Shown in pieces: positions 7,732 to 51,322 of a DNA stretch of 64,000 bases. A program made the position numbers and the translations under genes. Origin of the DNA: Anaerolineales bacterium (GTDB lineage: Bacteria > Chloroflexota > Anaerolineae > Anaerolineales > UBA4823); contig JAFGJM010000002.1 of the NCBI GenBank assembly GCA_016929095.1, positions 233,580-297,579 on the forward strand, given 5' to 3'. Position 1 is the first letter of the stretch; each line of letters opens with the position of its first letter. The notes beneath the pieces were generated by a model. That model was not told where the DNA came from. It did not search any database and saw only the letters and a list, made by a program, of their open reading frames with translations.

Positions 7732-9057
7732 TTAATGCGACCGCCGGGAACGGAAGAAAAGACCCAGCATACCAACCCCGAGGATAGCAGGCAGACCGAA
7801 AGTTGTACCGGCTTGAATTGGAGATGCCGTGAAGCTTTGCAGCGTTACCGCAGTTGAATTGAAATCGAAAACATAATCCTCTACTTCACCATCGATTACC
7901 AATCCGGTCAATCCGGGCGCTTCGCCAGTACTGGTCGCTAAACCGGTTATACCTTGCCCACTGCAATCTCCATCTTGACCGATATCGGGAGATACCCGGA
8001 AGCGAGCGTAGACCGGATAGGTCGCTGCGTCCATCGGCAGTGTAAAATCAATGATATTTGCACCGGGATCTAGAGGATAATTGCTGATAACATTCTCACT
8101 CCAACCCGTGCCAATATCGGAAAAATCGCCATCAGAACCCACCCAACCGGTATATTCGTTTGTTATTGGGTTCAATCCGGTAGAATTCCAAACATCCATC
8201 CATGCGTTCAAGCAAGCTTTTCCGCCGGTTATTGTCACTTCAACAGAACCTTGTCCCATTGCCCAGTATTCCGGTGGGTTTGCAATGCGAACGCCGCCAT
8301 CTTCATCATCGCTGCCATTATTATCATCACCGGTAGCCAATTGATTGGGCTGCCCGTCGTGTTCCATATCGATACTGGCGCCAAGGAAAATATTGCCGGG
8401 GATGTGCCGGGCGCCATCATAAGCATAGGTTGTGATGTTATATGCAGGTGTTGAAGGATCTTCCGGTAGGTCTCCATAATCATAGCAAACCATCGAGATG
8501 GGGATAGAACGACCACTCACTGCCGAAGTTTGACTGCCTCCGTCGTATACCTGTGTGTGAACATTCAAATCAGTGTAATCGCCTACATAAACATGTGCCG
8601 CCGCTTCCCAGCCGTCTGCCACCCAGGCGCCCAGGTCGGAATTATAGACTTTATTGATCCATTCAAAATCGGGGAGAATGCCATCCGCAGGCGTGTCAGT
8701 TGCGTTTACTAATAAAGTGCTGGTTCCCCATTTAACAAATGTATCACTATCATTTGCGAGTATGTATATTCCCGGTTCTGGAAGCACCAATACATACAGA
8801 GTTTCCGTATAGCAATCATAGCGCACATAGAGCTTGGATTCGACTTGCTTATCAGGGTCTCCAGCACGATACATATTGGCATAAAAATCTGCTGTCAAGT
8901 CCCATTCGCTTGGATCACCATCTACTACAGCAACATTGTAAGCCGGTTCCGTGATGGCAACGGCTTGAACGCTGCCAAAAGGCATGAAGCTTAAGACAAA
9001 CAACATGCTGATCACGAATGTTTGTATGGCTCTGGCTTTTGTTCCTTTGATTCTCAT
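7732..9057 (-). CDS. Secreted GEVED-domain protein with C-terminal hydrophobic helix and Arg-rich tail
   Basis: Preferred start is ATG 9057, with GGAGGG upstream and a signal peptide (MRIKGTKARAIQTFVISMLFVLSFMPFGSVQA). The GEVED-domain hallmarks YDYGDLPE...ARH...DGQP...DDEDGG...AWMDVWN...GEVEDYVF are present. The C-terminus reads AVTLQSFTASPIQAGTTFGLPAILGVGMLGLFFRSRRSH. Confidence 0.75.
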   Translation of the reverse strand: MRIKGTKARAIQTFVISMLFVLSFMPFGSVQAVAITEPAYNVAVVDGDPSEWDLTADFYANMYRAGDPDKQVESKLYVRYDCYTETLYVLVLPEPGIYILANDSDTFVKWGTSTLLVNATDTPADGILPDFEWINKVYNSDLGAWVADGWEAAAHVYVGDYTDLNVHTQVYDGGSQTSAVSGRSIPISMVCYDYGDLPEDPSTPAYNITTYAYDGARHIPGNIFLGASIDMEHDGQPNQLATGDDNNGSDDEDGGVRIANPPEYWAMGQGSVEVTITGGKACLNAWMDVWNSTGLNPITNEYTGWVGSDGDFSDIGTGWSENVISNYPLDPGANIIDFTLPMDAATYPVYARFRVSPDIGQDGDCSGQGITGLATSTGEAPGLTGLVIDGEVEDYVFDFNSTAVTLQSFTASPIQAGTTFGLPAILGVGMLGLFFRSRRSH

Positions 9058-9432
9058 TGATACTGCCCTCCATCCTTTATGATTATTCGAAGCCATTAAA
9101 ATAAAAGCTGCCGAAACATTGTTTCTGTTTTCGGCAGCCAGGCTATCTGAAGTTTCAGACCCTAAACTTTGCGTCCCCACCTCACGATGGGTTTGCCTTT
9201 TCGTAACAAAATCATACAAATATTAAAACGATGTTAAACGACACCACTTCTAAAGGTCTCATAACAAAAAACGCAGAGTTTTAGTATTTGTTACAAAATT
9301 AGTACTTTTAGGCTATAGTTCTCAGAAATCCATTTCCACCCCGAGTGAATCGCCCCCTGAGTATAAATAAGGGTATGGTTTGTAGAAAACCCTCAAGTTT
9401 TTTCGATGGCAGTATATGAGAGCAATTCGCTT

Positions 9433-12400
9433 TTAATTACCGCTTACACTGCTGGCGATTGGAACAGTGGTATCAAGATCGGCAAAAACAATAAAGCGTT
9501 TTATATAGGCGCCTAATTCTTTATCCCAATCAGTACAAGTGATCAAAGTGATACTTGATTGTATTGTAGGGTTTAATACGGATAGGTCGGATGTATTAAC
9601 CACTTTCCAATCCCGAACTTTATACGTATATATATTCTTCTCTGTGAAAAGGGTAATCAAACTTCCTTTATTTAGCTGGTCTAGGTAACGGAACGGTCCA
9701 TCTTCACCCGAGTTTAATGTGACATGTCCTGCTAAACCGGTATTTCCGCCTAACCCAGGCCAGGAAGTATCTCCCAACCAGGCAACCTCTTGCTTTAAAC
9801 CAGATATTAACCAGGTATCGCCCTCATAGGGCACATATTTAATAACCGCGTCAACACCCAAATCGGGAATAAATAAACGAACCGGAGAGGTGTCATCCGG
9901 TGGTTGTTCCGTATTTTGAGGAGTAGGCATAAACGAAGGTGTTGGCACCGGGTAATCAGGTAAAAACTCTAACTCATCATCCGACAAAGGAATATCAATA
10001 GGGCGTAAATTAGTAATTAATTCCTCTTTCATTACACCAATTTGCGTTGGTTCTGGCGCTTGGGAAACCGGTTGTTTGGAAAAGCTGGCTAATCCCCAGG
10101 CAGCAAAGGCAAAGCCAATCGCCACTATCAACATTACAGGTCCCATCCGCAAACACCACCCAGCCCACTCGGATTGTTGAGTTTTTAACCGTCTGCCAAA
10201 AAACAGTAAGACAATCCCCAACCCAAACAGTAATACGCTGCACACAATCGCCATAACCACACCGGCGGATATCCCCGAAGCAAGAATGGCACTACCAGGG
10301 ATGATTATTTCCCCAGTTGAGGGTAACGAAGATGAACTGCTGGAAATCCGGTAAGCGGTACTGGCGGTTTTGGATAAAGTACTTCCTCCATAATAATAGG
10401 TTAGATATGCATAGTTGGTAAGATATGTGACAGTCGTTGCTGCGTTGACCACCTTACACGAAATTGTGATGGTTGCTGTATACCCTGCGCTGAGTGTGCC
10501 GATGGAAACTGTGACGACATTGGTAGAACTATTATATGAAGCGCTGCCACGGGTTGTGGAGACACTGGAAATATCTAAATAGGTGGTATTAAATGTGTCT
10601 TTTACTACCACGCTTGAAATCGAAACAGTACTATTATTGGTGACATAAATATAAAACGTAATGTACCCGTTTAATGCTTGTTGGACAGGTGACACCGATT
10701 TCGAAAAACTGACGCTGGGGGTGTAAGAAATCGTGTTTGAATCGGTGGCGGAATTATTGGAGGTATTGCCTTCATCGGTATCTGTACTCACACTTATTGA
10801 ATTCACTTGCGTTGTACCTACCATCGATGAAGCGGCGACAACGCCTAATTCATAGGTCAATACGTCTCCGGCTTCGATATCGAACGGATAATCCCAACGA
10901 TATGTCTTGGCAGCCGGCAGGGTGTAAGTGATTCCCAGGGTTTGCAAAGTATCCGTGACATAAGACAAATAGGTGGGTAATACATCGGTGATCACAATCC
11001 CGGTCGCATCTTCAGAGCCGGCATTGGTAATGAAAATCGTATATGTAAATTCATCGCTGGGTGATAGAGTCGTTTGATAATCCGTTTTACGTATTTGCAA
11101 ATCGGGTGCACCTTCAACTGTGAAGTCTACCGAATCGGAGTTATTCGTTGTATCGTAATCGACAAAATCCGAAGTCAATCCGCTGGCAGTGTTGACTATG
11201 GTATCTTCATCAGTGCCCAAATTAATCCTGCCGACCAGTTTTAATGTCGCCGACATCCCATCCCCCAAAGTGCCAATGGTCCACAAACCGGTAGCATAAG
11301 CATAAGACTGCCCGGAAGGCGAAGACGAAACGCTGTATGACGAATAGGTTATTCCACTGGGCATAAGATCTGTCAGTTTAACATTCGTAGCGGTGATTGG
11401 TCCGTTATTGATAACCACGACATCATACGTAACCAAACCACCTTCCAACGGCGCAGATGGTGAAAAAGATTTGGTTACCTCCAGATCGACCGCCAAAACC
11501 GCATCGGTATCGGTGGCAGTGTTGTTGGTCGTGTTTCCTTCTTCATCCTCTGTGCTCACACTGACTACATTTGCCAATGATGAAATTGAAGATAATGATG
11601 AAGCAGCTTTTACAACCAGATCGAAAGAAATCGTTCCTCCAACACCAAGCGATGATGGATATGCCCATGAATACGTATTACCGGAAATTGCGGGTGTAAT
11701 GCCTGATGTATCAGAAACATACGATAAATTCGCTGGCAATACATCGTTTATAACGATCCCTGAAGCTGACGCCGAACCGGCATTATTAATAGTGATCGTA
11801 TACGCGAATTCATCACCGGGAGTAACCGAGGTTTGGTTATCGGTCTTAAATATCTCCAAATCCGGGGCTGCTTCTACAGTAACAGTTACCGTATCCGTAT
11901 TATTAGTAGTATCGTAATCAGGGTAATTTGAAGTTAATCCACTGGCAACATTATAGATTTCTTTCCCCCCACTTCCAGATTTTATCCTGCCGGTTAATGT
12001 TAATGTTGCGAAATCACCGTCACCTAATGTGCCTATATTCCATAAACCGGAAGCAGTATCATAGGTTTGACCGGTAGGGGTTGAAGAGAAATTATGAGAT
12101 AAATAAGTTATACTAACAGGAAGAGTATCGGTAAGTTTAACCCCGTTGGTAGAATCTGGTCCATTATTCGTGGCAATTACTGTGTAAGTGACTATCTCAC
12201 CATCTAATGGTTCGGTAGAGTTTACAGATTTTGATACATCCAAATCTATGCCGATAATTTTAGTATCAACACTTGCTTCATTATTATTAGGATCTGAATC
12301 TTCCGTCATTTCTAAAAAGGCGATATTTGTCACCTCAATGGATTCAACAAATGGGACGTTTACTGTAATAATAATTTCAGGTATTGAATCTGGTAGTACA

Positions 12401-12804
12401 GATGTTATTGTATAAACGCCTTCAAATTTGTTACTATCTTGTGTAATAACCCACTCACCCCCCCCATCCACATCTTCTAATTCTAGTGGTGATGTGATTT
12501 CATCAGTAACAGTAATAATTTGGCCTTCTGAAAAATCACCACTTTCCTTAGTAATTGTTATGGTATATATGCCTTTACTTCCAGCTAAAAAATCCCCACT
12601 ATGGCTCTTTGCAATACTCAAATCAATATCATCTGTCGCCTGAACGCTCATCGCCTGCGCCGGTTTGACAAATTCCAATGCCGCCAGCCCCAGCAGCACA
12701 GCCGTTATCCCCATTGCACATATCAGGCTCAATCCAACTAACCCCGCCTTCTTGAGCCGCTTTACGGATCCATTTTCGTCATGTGTGTCCATCATTTTTC
12801 CCAT
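9433..12804 (-). CDS. Surface protein: signal peptide, DUF11-type repeats, LPSTG sorting signal, fused in frame to a second TM helix and a C-terminal sortase domain
   Basis: One uninterrupted 1123-aa ORF. Repeated motifs (VTYTVIATNNGPDSTNGVKLTDTLP and similar) fit DUF11/TIGR01451-type repeats. LPSTG lies at aa 827-831, followed by a TM helix and GRRLK, then a second TM helix, then sortase motifs LAGH, TLITC and KRF. Confidence 0.8.
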   Translation of the reverse strand: MGKMMDTHDENGSVKRLKKAGLVGLSLICAMGITAVLLGLAALEFVKPAQAMSVQATDDIDLSIAKSHSGDFLAGSKGIYTITITKESGDFSEGQIITVTDEITSPLELEDVDGGGEWVITQDSNKFEGVYTITSVLPDSIPEIIITVNVPFVESIEVTNIAFLEMTEDSDPNNNEASVDTKIIGIDLDVSKSVNSTEPLDGEIVTYTVIATNNGPDSTNGVKLTDTLPVSITYLSHNFSSTPTGQTYDTASGLWNIGTLGDGDFATLTLTGRIKSGSGGKEIYNVASGLTSNYPDYDTTNNTDTVTVTVEAAPDLEIFKTDNQTSVTPGDEFAYTITINNAGSASASGIVINDVLPANLSYVSDTSGITPAISGNTYSWAYPSSLGVGGTISFDLVVKAASSLSSISSLANVVSVSTEDEEGNTTNNTATDTDAVLAVDLEVTKSFSPSAPLEGGLVTYDVVVINNGPITATNVKLTDLMPSGITYSSYSVSSSPSGQSYAYATGLWTIGTLGDGMSATLKLVGRINLGTDEDTIVNTASGLTSDFVDYDTTNNSDSVDFTVEGAPDLQIRKTDYQTTLSPSDEFTYTIFITNAGSEDATGIVITDVLPTYLSYVTDTLQTLGITYTLPAAKTYRWDYPFDIEAGDVLTYELGVVAASSMVGTTQVNSISVSTDTDEGNTSNNSATDSNTISYTPSVSFSKSVSPVQQALNGYITFYIYVTNNSTVSISSVVVKDTFNTTYLDISSVSTTRGSASYNSSTNVVTVSIGTLSAGYTATITISCKVVNAATTVTYLTNYAYLTYYYGGSTLSKTASTAYRISSSSSSLPSTGEIIIPGSAILASGISAGVVMAIVCSVLLFGLGIVLLFFGRRLKTQQSEWAGWCLRMGPVMLIVAIGFAFAAWGLASFSKQPVSQAPEPTQIGVMKEELITNLRPIDIPLSDDELEFLPDYPVPTPSFMPTPQNTEQPPDDTSPVRLFIPDLGVDAVIKYVPYEGDTWLISGLKQEVAWLGDTSWPGLGGNTGLAGHVTLNSGEDGPFRYLDQLNKGSLITLFTEKNIYTYKVRDWKVVNTSDLSVLNPTIQSSITLITCTDWDKELGAYIKRFIVFADLDTTVPIASSVSGN
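9475..9885 (-). other. Sortase catalytic domain region inside the 1123-aa ORF
   Basis: RLFIPDLGVDAVIKYVPYEG...NTGLAGHVTLNSG (His codon 9724-9726)...ITLITCTDW (Cys codon 9535-9537)...IKRFIVFADL (Arg codon 9496-9498). Confidence 0.75.
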
Positions 12805-12930: not shown

Positions 12931-14835
12931 TTAACCCTTCAACTGCCTTTCATCCCCGCGCCGTACGGTGATGCCTTGTGCATCCATATTTTCCAATAAT
13001 GCCAGGGCATATTTACGGCTGGTGTTGAAATGATCGCGCACCCCGGCGGCTGATATTGAGCCTTTGGATTGAATTAGATTTTTTATGTCTTCGACCATAT
13101 TGATATATGTTTCTGGCAAAAATACGACTTCGGGCGACACTTGAACCAGCGCCTCCTGATCCACCAAGGCGGAATAAACCAGCTCCCCCACCTCATTTTG
13201 GCAGTCTTTCACCGAAGGTGTGAGGTATGGATTACTTTTGAATTTGGCTAACAGTCCGTCGATAGCCGCCTGCTGCTGAGCGTTGAATTTCACAGAGAAA
13301 TCGGCGCTTTTGAGATTGACGCCAATCTCCGCCAGCTTTTGGCAAGCCAACAATTCATCGATGGCTGCATTGAATAAACGCAGCGATATTTTCGTGCGGC
13401 TTCTCAACGCTTCGCGCGGCATCCCCTGTTTCAACGGATTGACCTGGTGAAAATGAGATACCTCATCCATGATCTGCAGCAATAACGTTTCCCAATATGC
13501 GAGGGTGGTCGCCAGGTTATCTTTCACGAGCGCGGCGCTTTTTTCCCTTCGTTTTTCCGGGTCGATCAATTCGCCATTTTGTAATAATTGGGATAAAGCC
13601 TGTTTTGCCGTTTCCTGGTTCAGGTTGGCGCGGGCAAGAATATCGCCAATCGTTCCTGCCCCCACTTCCAACACCGCCTGTAAAAGAATTTCCTCAGGTG
13701 AACCTTGGGCTAAAGCGTTCAGTTTATCGATAACCGGTTTCGCAAAGCGTTTGTGCCTTCTTTTGGGTAATGCATCCACCACCATGCCCCCGCCGATGGT
13801 TTCGCCGGGAGAAGGGCGGCGCAGAATAAACCGATCTCCCCGTACAGCCACAATCGGTTGATCGGTTTCCAATTGCAGCCAGCCCTCTTCGCCCGGATTC
13901 AGATTTTCTGCCCCCAACAACCGTACTCGCGCCGGCGTTTCACTGGCGCCGATGAATAATTTCACGCCATGATCGTGTTTGATCGGTTGGCTGGCATCGG
14001 TTAGTAATCGAAAGCTGACATCCAACAAACGGGTGGATTTATAGGTTGATGGCTTAGCCACCACCTCGCCGCGCGCGATCTGGTTGACATCCACACCAGA
14101 AATATTGATCGCTGTACGGCTTCCGGGGAAAACAATATCAACTTTTCTCTGATGATTCTGAAGCCCCCTTATCCGCCCTTTGACGCCCGACGGCAAAATC
14201 TCCACTTCATCACCAATTTTGAATGAACCATTCTGCAATGTCCCTGTTACCACCGTCCCAAAACCGGAAATTGAAAAAATCCGGTCGATGGGCAGCCTGG
14301 GCTTTCCCAGGTCGGCATGTAAGGGGTATTCACTTAGTAAACTTTCCAATCCTGATACCAGAGCATCGATACCCTCTTTTGTCTTACTGGATACGCGATA
14401 GATGTTTACATTTTCCAAAGAAGTACCAATCAACGCATTTCTTACATCGCTCTCTACCAAATCTAACCATTCCATATCGTCGATCAGATCGATTTTCGTC
14501 AACGCAACCAAACCTGACTGCACCTGTAAAAGATCGAGAATAGCCAGATGCTCACGCGTTTGCGGCATGACGCCCTCGTCTGCGGCGACCACCAATATGA
14601 CAGCATCAATGCCCCCCACACCCGCCAGCATATTTTCGATAAAATCGCGGTGTCCAGGGACATCTACAATTCCGACGTCATCTTCCCCGGGCATGGTAAA
14701 CCAGGCAAACCCCAGGTCGATCGTCATTTCGCGCTCGCGCTCTTCTTTAAGACGGTCCGGGTGAACTCCGGTTAATGCCTGCACCAATGCAGATTTACCG
14801 TGATCAACGTGACCTGCTGTACCGATTACATGCAC
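12931..14835 (-). CDS. selB: Selenocysteine-specific translation elongation factor SelB
   Basis: N-terminus [42 protein letters not shown], then DVPGH and a long C-terminal extension. Total length 634 aa, typical of bacterial SelB rather than EF-Tu. Confidence 0.9.
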
Positions 14836-41501: not shown

Positions 41502-41507
41502 ATCAGG

Positions 41508-41578
41508 CTGGGGGTCGAGGATTCGAACCTCGGCATACGGATTCAGAGTCCGCTGTCCTACCACTAGACGAACCCCCA
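41508..41578 (-). tRNA. tRNA-Gln (anticodon CUG)
   Basis: Manual fold of the reverse complement gives acceptor TGGGGGT/ACCCCCA, D stem GTCT/GGAC, anticodon stem GCGGA/TCCGT with loop CTCTGAA, T arm CGAGG-TTCGAAT-CCTCG, and discriminator G. No CCA is encoded. Confidence 0.9.
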
Positions 41579-43133: not shown

Positions 43134-44237
43134 TTAAAATTCCAGGGTTTTATAGCGTAATACAACGCTTTCCACCAGACCGATGCCTAATAAGGTGGAA
43201 AGCAATGAACTACCACCATAACTGACGAACGGCATTGTCAATCCGGTGGCAGGCAATAGATTTAAATTCACGCCAATATTCACGATCGTTTGAAAGGCTA
43301 ATAGAGTTGCGACGCCAAAAGCAATAAGTGCGCCAAAGCTATCTTTGGCTATGCGGGCAGCGCGCAAACAACGCATGATCACGAACAGAAGCAAAGCCAG
43401 CACAATCACCGTTCCAATAAAACCGAATTCTTCCGCCATAGCTGAAAAAATGAAATCCGAGTGGCGCACTTTTAGAAAACGTAATTGCACCTGGGTGCCA
43501 TGACCATAACCTTGACCAAACCATCCTCCGGAACCGATACTGATCAAAGCCTGTTGCACATTGTAAATGTCACCATGGCGCGCCTCCGGGTCGGGAAAAA
43601 GAAAGTTAATAATGCGCCTCTGTTGATATTCCTCCAGGAATGGGTAGCTTACCACAGGGGCTAAAACGCCCAGTCCGATAAACATCATCAAATGCTTGAG
43701 CTGTAATCCAGCCGCCCATAATAAGGCAAACCATAAAACCAAAATCACGATCGAAGTACTTAGGTTAGGCTGCAATATAATCCAAATCACAATTCCCAGG
43801 GTAAGCAAGAAACTCCTCCCCACTAATTTCAGATCGAGAATTTCCGATTTGTGCACACTAAAAAAATGCGCCAGAACCAGGATGATAACGATTTTTGCCA
43901 GCTCAGAAGGTTGGATCAAGATCACCCCCGTATCGAACCAGCGGGCAGAACCAAAAAAAACGGCGCCAGCGGTGAATAAAACCGCCAGAAAAACAGCCAT
44001 TCCGATATACAGCGTTCGACTGATGGAAGACCAAAAATGGTAATCGATCATCGAGGTAATAATGATGACAATAAACCCGGCTATGGCAAAGATCGTTTGG
44101 CGTCCTACCAGATTCAACTCCAATAGTTCGATATTGCCTGCGACAGCCGAGCGGATCATAGTGATGCCAAAAATGGTCAACACCGCGACCGCCCCTAATA
44201 GCAGGAAATCGAAATTACGCCAATTGACAGTTTTCAT
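43134..44237 (-). CDS. rodA: SEDS-family peptidoglycan polymerase RodA (FtsW/RodA/SpoVE)
   Basis: 367-aa polytopic protein with SEDS-like segments (QPSELAKI, SDFIFSAMAEEFGFIG). Sits in a context of mrdA and mreBCD. Confidence 0.8.
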   Translation of the reverse strand: MKTVNWRNFDFLLLGAVAVLTIFGITMIRSAVAGNIELLELNLVGRQTIFAIAGFIVIIITSMIDYHFWSSISRTLYIGMAVFLAVLFTAGAVFFGSARWFDTGVILIQPSELAKIVIILVLAHFFSVHKSEILDLKLVGRSFLLTLGIVIWIILQPNLSTSIVILVLWFALLWAAGLQLKHLMMFIGLGVLAPVVSYPFLEEYQQRRIINFLFPDPEARHGDIYNVQQALISIGSGGWFGQGYGHGTQVQLRFLKVRHSDFIFSAMAEEFGFIGTVIVLALLLFVIMRCLRAARIAKDSFGALIAFGVATLLAFQTIVNIGVNLNLLPATGLTMPFVSYGGSSLLSTLLGIGLVESVVLRYKTLEF

Positions 44238-50627: not shown

Positions 50628-50987
50628 AATATGCTCCTCAGTCCGTTGCGTAATAAATTATGATCTCTTGGTGTGTACCTGCTCGTGATGCTAAGGGGCA
50701 GTTTGGCAGGTCCGCCCACGACACATCGTCGCAGATTATACCATCGAACATCTGTAGCATAGTATCCCACACGTCAGAATAAAATTAGACCTCTTTAATC
50801 TTACTATTACTTGCTTATTAATATTAAGTTAAACACACCCCAATTGTATGGATATTCTCAAATATTTGGATTAATATTTACTAATCATCTGGATGATAAA
50901 TTCTGTTCTACAAGCCTGGGTAATAAGATATAATCGAGCAGTATCATAAAATATGGAGGTGACGCGAATACAAAAAAATAACGGGAA

Positions 50988-51192
50988 AGACAGCGCATGG
51001 CTCAATTGGGGGTTTATGAGTGACGAGGATGAGGGTTCCTGTTTGCGAAAACAGGTTAACCGGGGAACCGGGAAAATCGAAAGATCAGCGGATGCCCTCC
51101 GGGTGCTCCACCACCCGATACCTTTCCCTCCAAAGTGAGACTATCTGTTCAACACTACCCGGGTAACCGGACAGACAAACGCGGATAGAGTG
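50988..51192 (+). promoter_or_regulatory. glmS ribozyme (GlcN6P-activated self-cleaving riboswitch)
   Basis: A|GCGC cleavage-site-like start at 50992/50993, followed by the conserved core GACGAGGATGAGGGTT...ATCGAAAGATCAGCGGATGCCCTCCGGGTG and a P4-like distal hairpin (CTATCTGT...ACAGA...GATAG). It lies directly upstream of glmS. Confidence 0.8.
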
Positions 51193-51322
51193 GTTTTGAA
51201 AGTGAGAAGTGAATTGAAAATAGTGAGTGGTTATTTACGTACAAATCTCATTAAATTACTCCCACTCACTCTTCACCAGTCACACCTCGCAAATTGACGA
51301 ATAACTCTAATTGGAGGATCCT

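Follow-up and report, generated by a model that had tools for sequence, protein, structure and literature searches.

One gene on the minus strand of the window (the 64,000-nt stretch of DNA from an Anaerolineales bacterium, phylum Chloroflexota, that was analysed here) encodes a surface stalk protein, an LPSTG sorting signal and a sortase. Cell-wall sorting signals of the LPSTG type are the normal cutting target of sortases. The gene spans positions 9433..12804, and in the list of open reading frames (ORFs) its frame runs uninterrupted for 1123 amino acids (aa). The product is NCBI entry MBN1535318.1 (1123 aa, "MAG: sortase [Anaerolineales bacterium]"), found on a 304-kb contig. From the N to the C terminus it comprises a hydrophobic signal, six immunoglobulin-like (Ig-like) domains of the DUF11/CLIPPER type, the LPSTG motif, a first transmembrane helix (TM1), a loop containing GRRLK, a second transmembrane helix (TM2), a Pro-rich linker and the sortase domain. 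An original prediction, made from the DNA letters and an ORF list, had proposed both the single 1123-aa ORF and the order of its parts, from DUF11 repeats through LPSTG and two transmembrane (TM) helices to sortase. The ORF list, an independent assembly and the NCBI record bear out the former, and each structural claim in the latter holds when examined by Pfam search, hydropathy analysis and AlphaFold2 (AF2) modelling. The rest of the window contains no second LPxTG-plus-TM signal and no second sortase-like ORF. Promoter and terminator scans around the fused gene gave counts not above those of shuffled sequence.

The N-terminal hydrophobic segment (aa 22-51; 12652..12741, minus strand; Kyte-Doolittle core aa 22-40) is preceded by the basic stretch KRLKK, which could form the n-region of a signal, and carries AQA/MS, a putative cleavage site. 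The segment may be either a signal peptide or, given its length, an uncleaved signal anchor. Next comes the passenger (aa ~62-826; 10327..12621, minus strand), in which six Ig-like stalk domains of the DUF11/CLIPPER type stand in tandem. The corresponding Pfam model, PF01345, scores 341 bits over 6 stretches, above the Pfam threshold, and the NCBIfam model for the DUF11-type repeat (TIGR01451) scores 154 bits. AF2 models the last of these domains as an Ig-like sandwich, with a predicted local distance difference test (pLDDT) score of at least 90. DUF11, now called CLIPPER, is a CnaA-like domain that forms the stalks of fibrillar adhesins and often contains an isopeptide bond; it is typical of sortase-anchored adhesins (PMC12617251). 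In another Chloroflexota species, DUF11 domains form bead-like filaments (PMC13319060).

The passenger gives way directly to the sorting motif, LPSTG (aa 827-831; 10312..10326, minus strand). TM1 (aa ~849-869; 10198..10260, minus strand; Kyte-Doolittle 2.97, core aa 849-867) forms the hydrophobic part of the signal and leads into the basic loop GRRLKTQQSEWAGWCLR (aa 870-886; 10147..10197, minus strand), predicted to be cytoplasmic. TM2 (aa 887-908; 10081..10146, minus strand; Kyte-Doolittle core aa 884-902) begins with Met887. Thus the three parts of an LPXTG signal are present in their usual succession (LPSTG, the helix at aa 849-869, GRRLK), and this arrangement is kept throughout the family described below. 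The signal is not C-terminal: the 292 residues beyond the motif contain TM2, the linker and the sortase domain. None of the NCBIfam LPXTG-anchor models matches the window protein at E <= 1. Preceded by a basic loop, TM2 corresponds to the membrane anchor that stand-alone sortases carry at their N terminus. The loop GRRLKTQQSEWAGWCLR would have two roles, giving the sorting signal its charged tail and the sortase anchor its N-in side. AF2 predicts a confident helical hairpin here, with one arm at aa 847-875 and the other at aa 881-908 (pLDDT >90).

The hairpin has regular dimensions across 164 family sequences. The distance from LPxTG to the TM1 core has a median of 16 residues, and the net charge of the inter-helix loop, with a median of +3, is positive in 96% of cases. 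Because the loop is positive, and hence by the positive-inside rule should be cytoplasmic, the LPxTG motif and the catalytic domain should both lie outside the cytoplasmic membrane. The loop charge thus supports the topology put forward in the original prediction. The suggestion, made along with it, that an internal start at Met887 could yield a stand-alone sortase fared less well: Met occupies this column in just 11 of 69 aligned sequences and the third column upstream of it in 33, so that a conserved start is unsupported.

The sortase catalytic domain (aa 978-1110; 9475..9873, minus strand) gives a significant match to PF04203 (78.3 bits, against a gathering cutoff of 26.6), and the generic NCBIfam sortase model TIGR01076 also exceeds its cutoff (43.5 against 39.35 bits). 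The catalytic residues are His1027 in LAGH (nt 9724-9726), Cys1090 in TLITC (nt 9535-9537) and Arg1103 in KRF (nt 9496-9498), all encoded on the minus strand and invariant in 69 aligned relatives. The AF2 model, which was run on the family alignment, has a mean pLDDT of 82.9. Its C-terminal part is a sortase barrel, with block means mostly between 80 and 97 and two blocks near 70. Compared with the PDB by Foldseek, this eight-stranded barrel matches solved sortases with a probability of 1.00 and a target-normalised TM-score of up to 0.83. The best matches in both sequence and fold are to solved sortases of classes A, D and E, and Foldseek returns class C enzymes as well. The best sequence match to a solved structure is Clostridium perfringens SrtD (4d70; E = 5e-10, phmmer); the closest solved structures share only 20-29% identity with the window domain. 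None of the curated NCBIfam classes (A-F and GN) reaches its cutoff; the best, class E, scores 51 bits against 160, ahead of classes F, D, C and GN. Since no curated class model comes near its cutoff, the domain belongs to a distinct sortase clade.

The catalytic core is held on a flexible tether of ~70 residues in the window protein, including a stretch of 32 residues that is disordered in the AF2 model. In the 164 family sequences, a conserved segment of the sortase core, WPGLG, lies a median of 118 residues past TM2. Within the linker is a motif, LPDYPVPTP (aa 948-956; 9937..9963, minus strand), that column counts reveal to be nearly invariant; in the 69-member alignment its family form is L-P-D-[YF]-P-[IV]-P-[TS]-P. 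The motif precedes the first barrel strand by ~28 residues, with AF2 block-mean pLDDT of 77-93 between the two. We take this position, ahead of the barrel, to be like that of the lid of class C pilus sortases.

The layout resembles a substrate gene joined end to end with a sortase gene, as might result from an error of sequencing or assembly or from the recent loss of a stop codon between adjacent genes. Some database relatives are indeed listed as short "sortase-only" proteins. Neither a hidden stop nor a frameshift was found at the junction. A 13.7-kb contig of a separate Logan assembly (run SRR13394437) encodes a protein (P0121) 100% identical over 1119 aa, and the fusion is kept in 98 species-representative genomes, all of them Chloroflexota and mostly labelled Anaerolineae or Anaerolineales. 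We inspected the junction in 80 loci kept from this survey. One frame crosses it entirely in 73; in 6, all from long-read assemblies, an LP[GP]TG motif lies just upstream and is followed by frameshifts; the last stops where its contig ends. None of the 80 is cleanly divided into two genes. Thus, the independent assembly and the family-wide conservation rule out an artefact or a lost stop, to which we assign a negligible probability. The short forms that were traced go back to a mis-called start, to frameshifts or to a contig end. In one of them (P0030, 406-kb contig) the true ORF extends further upstream and takes in LPGTG and a DUF11-like region, the short version arising from an internal ATG picked by the gene caller in an indel-rich, frameshifted assembly; another (P0247) is cut off by the end of its contig. 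In the cases checked, these findings rule out the short "sortase-only" relatives as a split ancestral state.

With aa 800-1123 as the query, 332 relatives were retrieved, among them many proteins of 500-565 aa that have both DUF11 and Sortase domains. Motif and helix counts were made on the best 120 of the 332. LPxTG lies upstream of the catalytic Cys in 101 of these, with exactly two TM helices between motif and Cys in 95 of the 101; the 19 without the motif are short proteins. When the linker and sortase part alone was used for an exhaustive HMMER search, 174 protein clusters (50% identity) were obtained at E <= 1e-30. In nearly all of the best 150 of the 174 the sortase domain stands at the C terminus or a few residues from it, in proteins of up to 1466 aa, with P0177 as a clear exception. 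Among the 97 representatives in this unbiased set that are at least 450 aa long, 96 have a motif of the form [LI][PA]xTG, followed in 91 cases by exactly two TM helices. The commonest family form is ~550 aa long; it has an N-terminal anchor, a spacer rich in Thr and Pro, and just one DUF11 domain. Forms of 800-1250 aa are also frequent, and the window protein, with its six domains, is a long member of the family. At the small end, a 350-aa protein (P0235) represents a minimal form, made of a signal peptide, ~30 residues, "PLTG", two TM helices and the sortase. Another relative (P0230) lacks the motif and contains five hydrophobic segments.

Conservation within the motif is strict. The L, P, T and G residues are invariant in all 69 aligned members, the neighbouring columns varying freely, and the sortase His, Cys and Arg are conserved to the same degree. 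The joint invariance of LPxTG and the catalytic residues throughout the family suggests that the motif is under selection and in use. The passenger is likewise uniform in kind. DUF11 domains make up or contribute to it in 49 of 50 long members, where their companions are only other Ig-like or stalk-type domains; the domain scan of these 50 recorded no recognisable tip domain, the passenger consisting of stalk-type domains alone. A YkuD L,D-transpeptidase domain was also recorded in the passenger of one long member (alignment A2).

Altogether, these data suggest that the fused gene probably specifies a self-contained sortase system, in which the tethered sortase cuts its own LPxTG motif or that of a sibling molecule and the stalk is moved to the cell wall. 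The polypeptide contains a complete substrate up to its charged tail and a complete sortase from its membrane anchor onwards, with nothing added, and can for this reason be regarded as a self-contained sorting unit. We envisage that the N-terminal signal would export the DUF11 stalk until transfer is stopped by TM1, and that TM2 would then re-export the C-terminal part. The resulting helical hairpin would hold the LPSTG motif and the sortase domain together on the outer face of the cytoplasmic membrane, in a geometry that permits action in cis or in trans. Cys1090 would attack the Thr830-Gly831 bond, in cis if the bond belongs to its own chain and in trans if it belongs to a copy alongside, and form a thioester with the stalk. 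Resolution of this intermediate by a cell-wall amine, presented by lipid II or peptidoglycan, would leave the stalk covalently linked to the wall. A remnant of ~32 kDa, extending from Gly831 to the end and comprising the two TM helices, the linker and the sortase, would stay in the membrane and may process further copies. Self-processing of this sort is chemically plausible since engineered fusions of sortase and LPXTG self-cleave (PMC2901362).

The surroundings of the family loci were searched for other components. The ~0.97 Mb of flanking DNA lacks any separate substrate with a C-terminal LPxTG and, apart from second copies at three loci, contains no other sortase-like ORF. A second sortase-like ORF or sortase-domain match was noted beside the fused gene in L036, L048, L060 and L069; these are possibly tandem copies.

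Some observations weigh against a self-contained system. The motif is degenerate in a few members, which have QAGTG, LACTG, LVNTG or IPATG. The sortase domain falls outside the curated classes, so that its specificity is not readable from homology. A separate housekeeping sortase could process the motif, our census covering the flanks of the loci. Finally, the LPSTG segment is disordered in the AF2 model (pLDDT <50) and for that reason is not docked in the active site, a result we otherwise judge uninformative. Both the lack of a class for the domain and the restriction of the survey to flanks leave some room for an arrangement in which fusion serves co-expression only: a stand-alone housekeeping enzyme would process LPxTG, and the fused domain would act on substrates encoded elsewhere in the genome. 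The tandem paralogues at a few loci would fit such a division of labor. Yet the flanks yielded neither a canonical C-terminal LPxTG substrate nor any extra sortase-like ORF beyond the three second copies, motif and enzyme are strictly co-inherited (with no clean split among the 80 loci), and tethering at high local concentration makes a cross-reaction between them hard to avoid. We consider this arrangement distinctly unlikely. The chance that LPxTG is never cut is slighter still. In that event the motif would be a tethered pseudo-substrate or a structural element, and the protein would remain an intact, membrane-anchored surface protein. The undocked motif, the internal position of the sorting signal and the lack of an NCBIfam LPXTG-anchor match are in line with this idea; however, the invariance of His, Cys, Arg and LPxTG is hard to explain unless catalysis takes place on the motif, and the hydrophobic helix with its basic tail exactly mimics a functional sorting signal.

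The fate of the cleaved stalk can also be construed differently. Instead of being transferred to the wall, Thr830 might be joined to a Lys side chain or to the N terminus of another stalk, giving pilus-like, covalent DUF11 fibers by self-polymerisation. The filaments that DUF11 beads form in the other Chloroflexota species (PMC13319060) speak for this possibility, as do a passenger composed of stalk-type domains with no recognisable tip and the presence of class C sortases among the Foldseek matches. The presumed likeness of the LPD[YF]P element to a class C lid points the same way. Against it, no Lys column is conserved at 90% or more in the membrane-proximal domain, no pilin motif was identified, and the best matches in sequence and fold are to classes A, D and E rather than C. 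We hold out little prospect for polymerisation on this evidence. A further possibility, speculative and on the whole improbable, is that the protein is a single-use module for self-anchoring or self-polymerisation. Each molecule would bring its own sortase and cleave itself in cis, and LPD[YF]P[IV]PTP, as a lid or pseudo-substrate, would keep the active site gated until export of the stalk is complete. If so, sortase-dependent surface assembly in Anaerolineae would operate with one enzyme per substrate, a mode that we know of for no sortase system.

The self-contained system that we favour shares much with the canonical sortase and LPXTG systems of Gram-positive bacteria, for example Staphylococcus aureus SrtA and protein A, or the class D and E enzymes with dedicated substrates nearby. 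The fold, the His-Cys-Arg triad, the tripartite signal, the N-in/C-out sortase anchor and the Ig-like stalk passenger are common to both. In contrast to those systems, enzyme and substrate here form one polypeptide, the signal is internal and the enzyme ends up with two TM helices; in addition, no curated class fits, and the host belongs to the Chloroflexota, not to the Bacillota or Actinomycetota. In type V autotransporters, too, a single polypeptide contains a surface-displayed passenger along with the apparatus for placing it, and the passenger is often cleaved off afterwards. They are a conceptual analogue only, unrelated in folds, chemistry and type of envelope, with no homology to the protein described here. 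The closest man-made counterparts are the self-cleaving fusions engineered for tag removal (BISOP), which likewise have their sortase and LPXTG site on a single chain and cleave themselves intramolecularly or intermolecularly (PMC2901362). These constructs are artificial and soluble, in the order sortase-LPXTG-cargo, whereas the present protein is natural and membrane-embedded, in the order cargo-LPxTG-TM-TM-sortase. Tandem Ig-like surface beads of the same kind occur in the CLIPPER adhesin stalks (PMC12617251) and in GhlA, the grappling-hook filament of Litorilinea aerophila (PMC13319060); unlike the window protein, neither has a fused sortase. The CLIPPER survey sought sortase motifs only in the last 50 residues (PMC12617251) and, for this reason, would miss the fused architecture.

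The original prediction knew of no described fused architecture of this type. We found no description of a natural substrate-sortase fusion in the open-access full-text literature, where only engineered fusions appear; a mention in a subscription journal is possible. One sortase review and one evolutionary paper on sortases mention no natural fusion, and sortases go unmentioned in the Chloroflexota envelope literature that was found. To this extent the claim stands, with the qualification that the protein is not singular: its family occurs in the 98 genomes counted above and its members are already in databases as "sortase". In conclusion, what is new is the natural fused layout; functionally, it is a sortase/LPXTG system of known kind.

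Genes on either side of the fused gene lie in the same orientation. Directly upstream is selB, encoding the selenocysteine elongation factor (12931-14835, minus strand). The order of selB and the fused gene recurs in 36 of 81 related loci, probably through conservation of gene order without a functional link. The gap that separates the stop codon of the fused gene from the next gene downstream contains a cyclic di-GMP (c-di-GMP) riboswitch, c-di-GMP-I (GGC variant), RF03167 (9129-9206, minus strand; 66.7 bits against a gathering score of 59). The same riboswitch precedes the homologous downstream gene in L022 (8571-8648), L045 (8783-8860) and L066 (3329-3406). Its position between the two genes suggests that the neighbouring surface protein, and not the fused sortase gene, is under c-di-GMP control. 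This downstream neighbour (7732-9219, minus strand) is a secreted protein with a weak GEVED-domain match (22.8 bits, just below cutoff). Because the TTG start given for it overlaps the riboswitch, the ORF is probably not as long as listed, and a Met near 9057 is probably the true start. Its conserved tail reads "GEVEDY..F..PTAV.L", followed by a TM helix and RR[RK], thus forming a tripartite anchor that lacks LPxTG. We considered it as a second sortase substrate and rejected it, the tail having no LPxTG and no NCBIfam match.

Elsewhere in the window are a glmS ribozyme (50981-51198, plus strand; 39.7 bits against a gathering score of 37) and a tRNA-Gln (CTG) gene (41506-41578, minus strand). 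An ORF at 43134-44237 (minus strand) contains "LPATGLTMPFVSYGGSS"; no TM-plus-basic tail follows this motif, which is hence not a sorting signal. We presume that it resembles a motif of FtsW/RodA-type peptidoglycan polymerases; if this is right, the organism makes peptidoglycan.

The family has practical implications for annotation and engineering. It falls into a blind spot of annotation, being missed by pipelines and surveys that search only the last ~50 residues and entered in databases just as "sortase". Natural self-processing modules recognising LPGTG or LPPTG could serve protein engineering, and some of them may be derived from thermophiles. The fused proteins also provide a natural system in which to ask whether a sortase can act on its own chain in cis, and what is gained when enzyme and substrate are fixed at a 1:1 ratio. 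The envelope architecture of Anaerolineae is still debated. For these bacteria, the family indicates that surface display through LPxTG and sortase is widespread and under selection.

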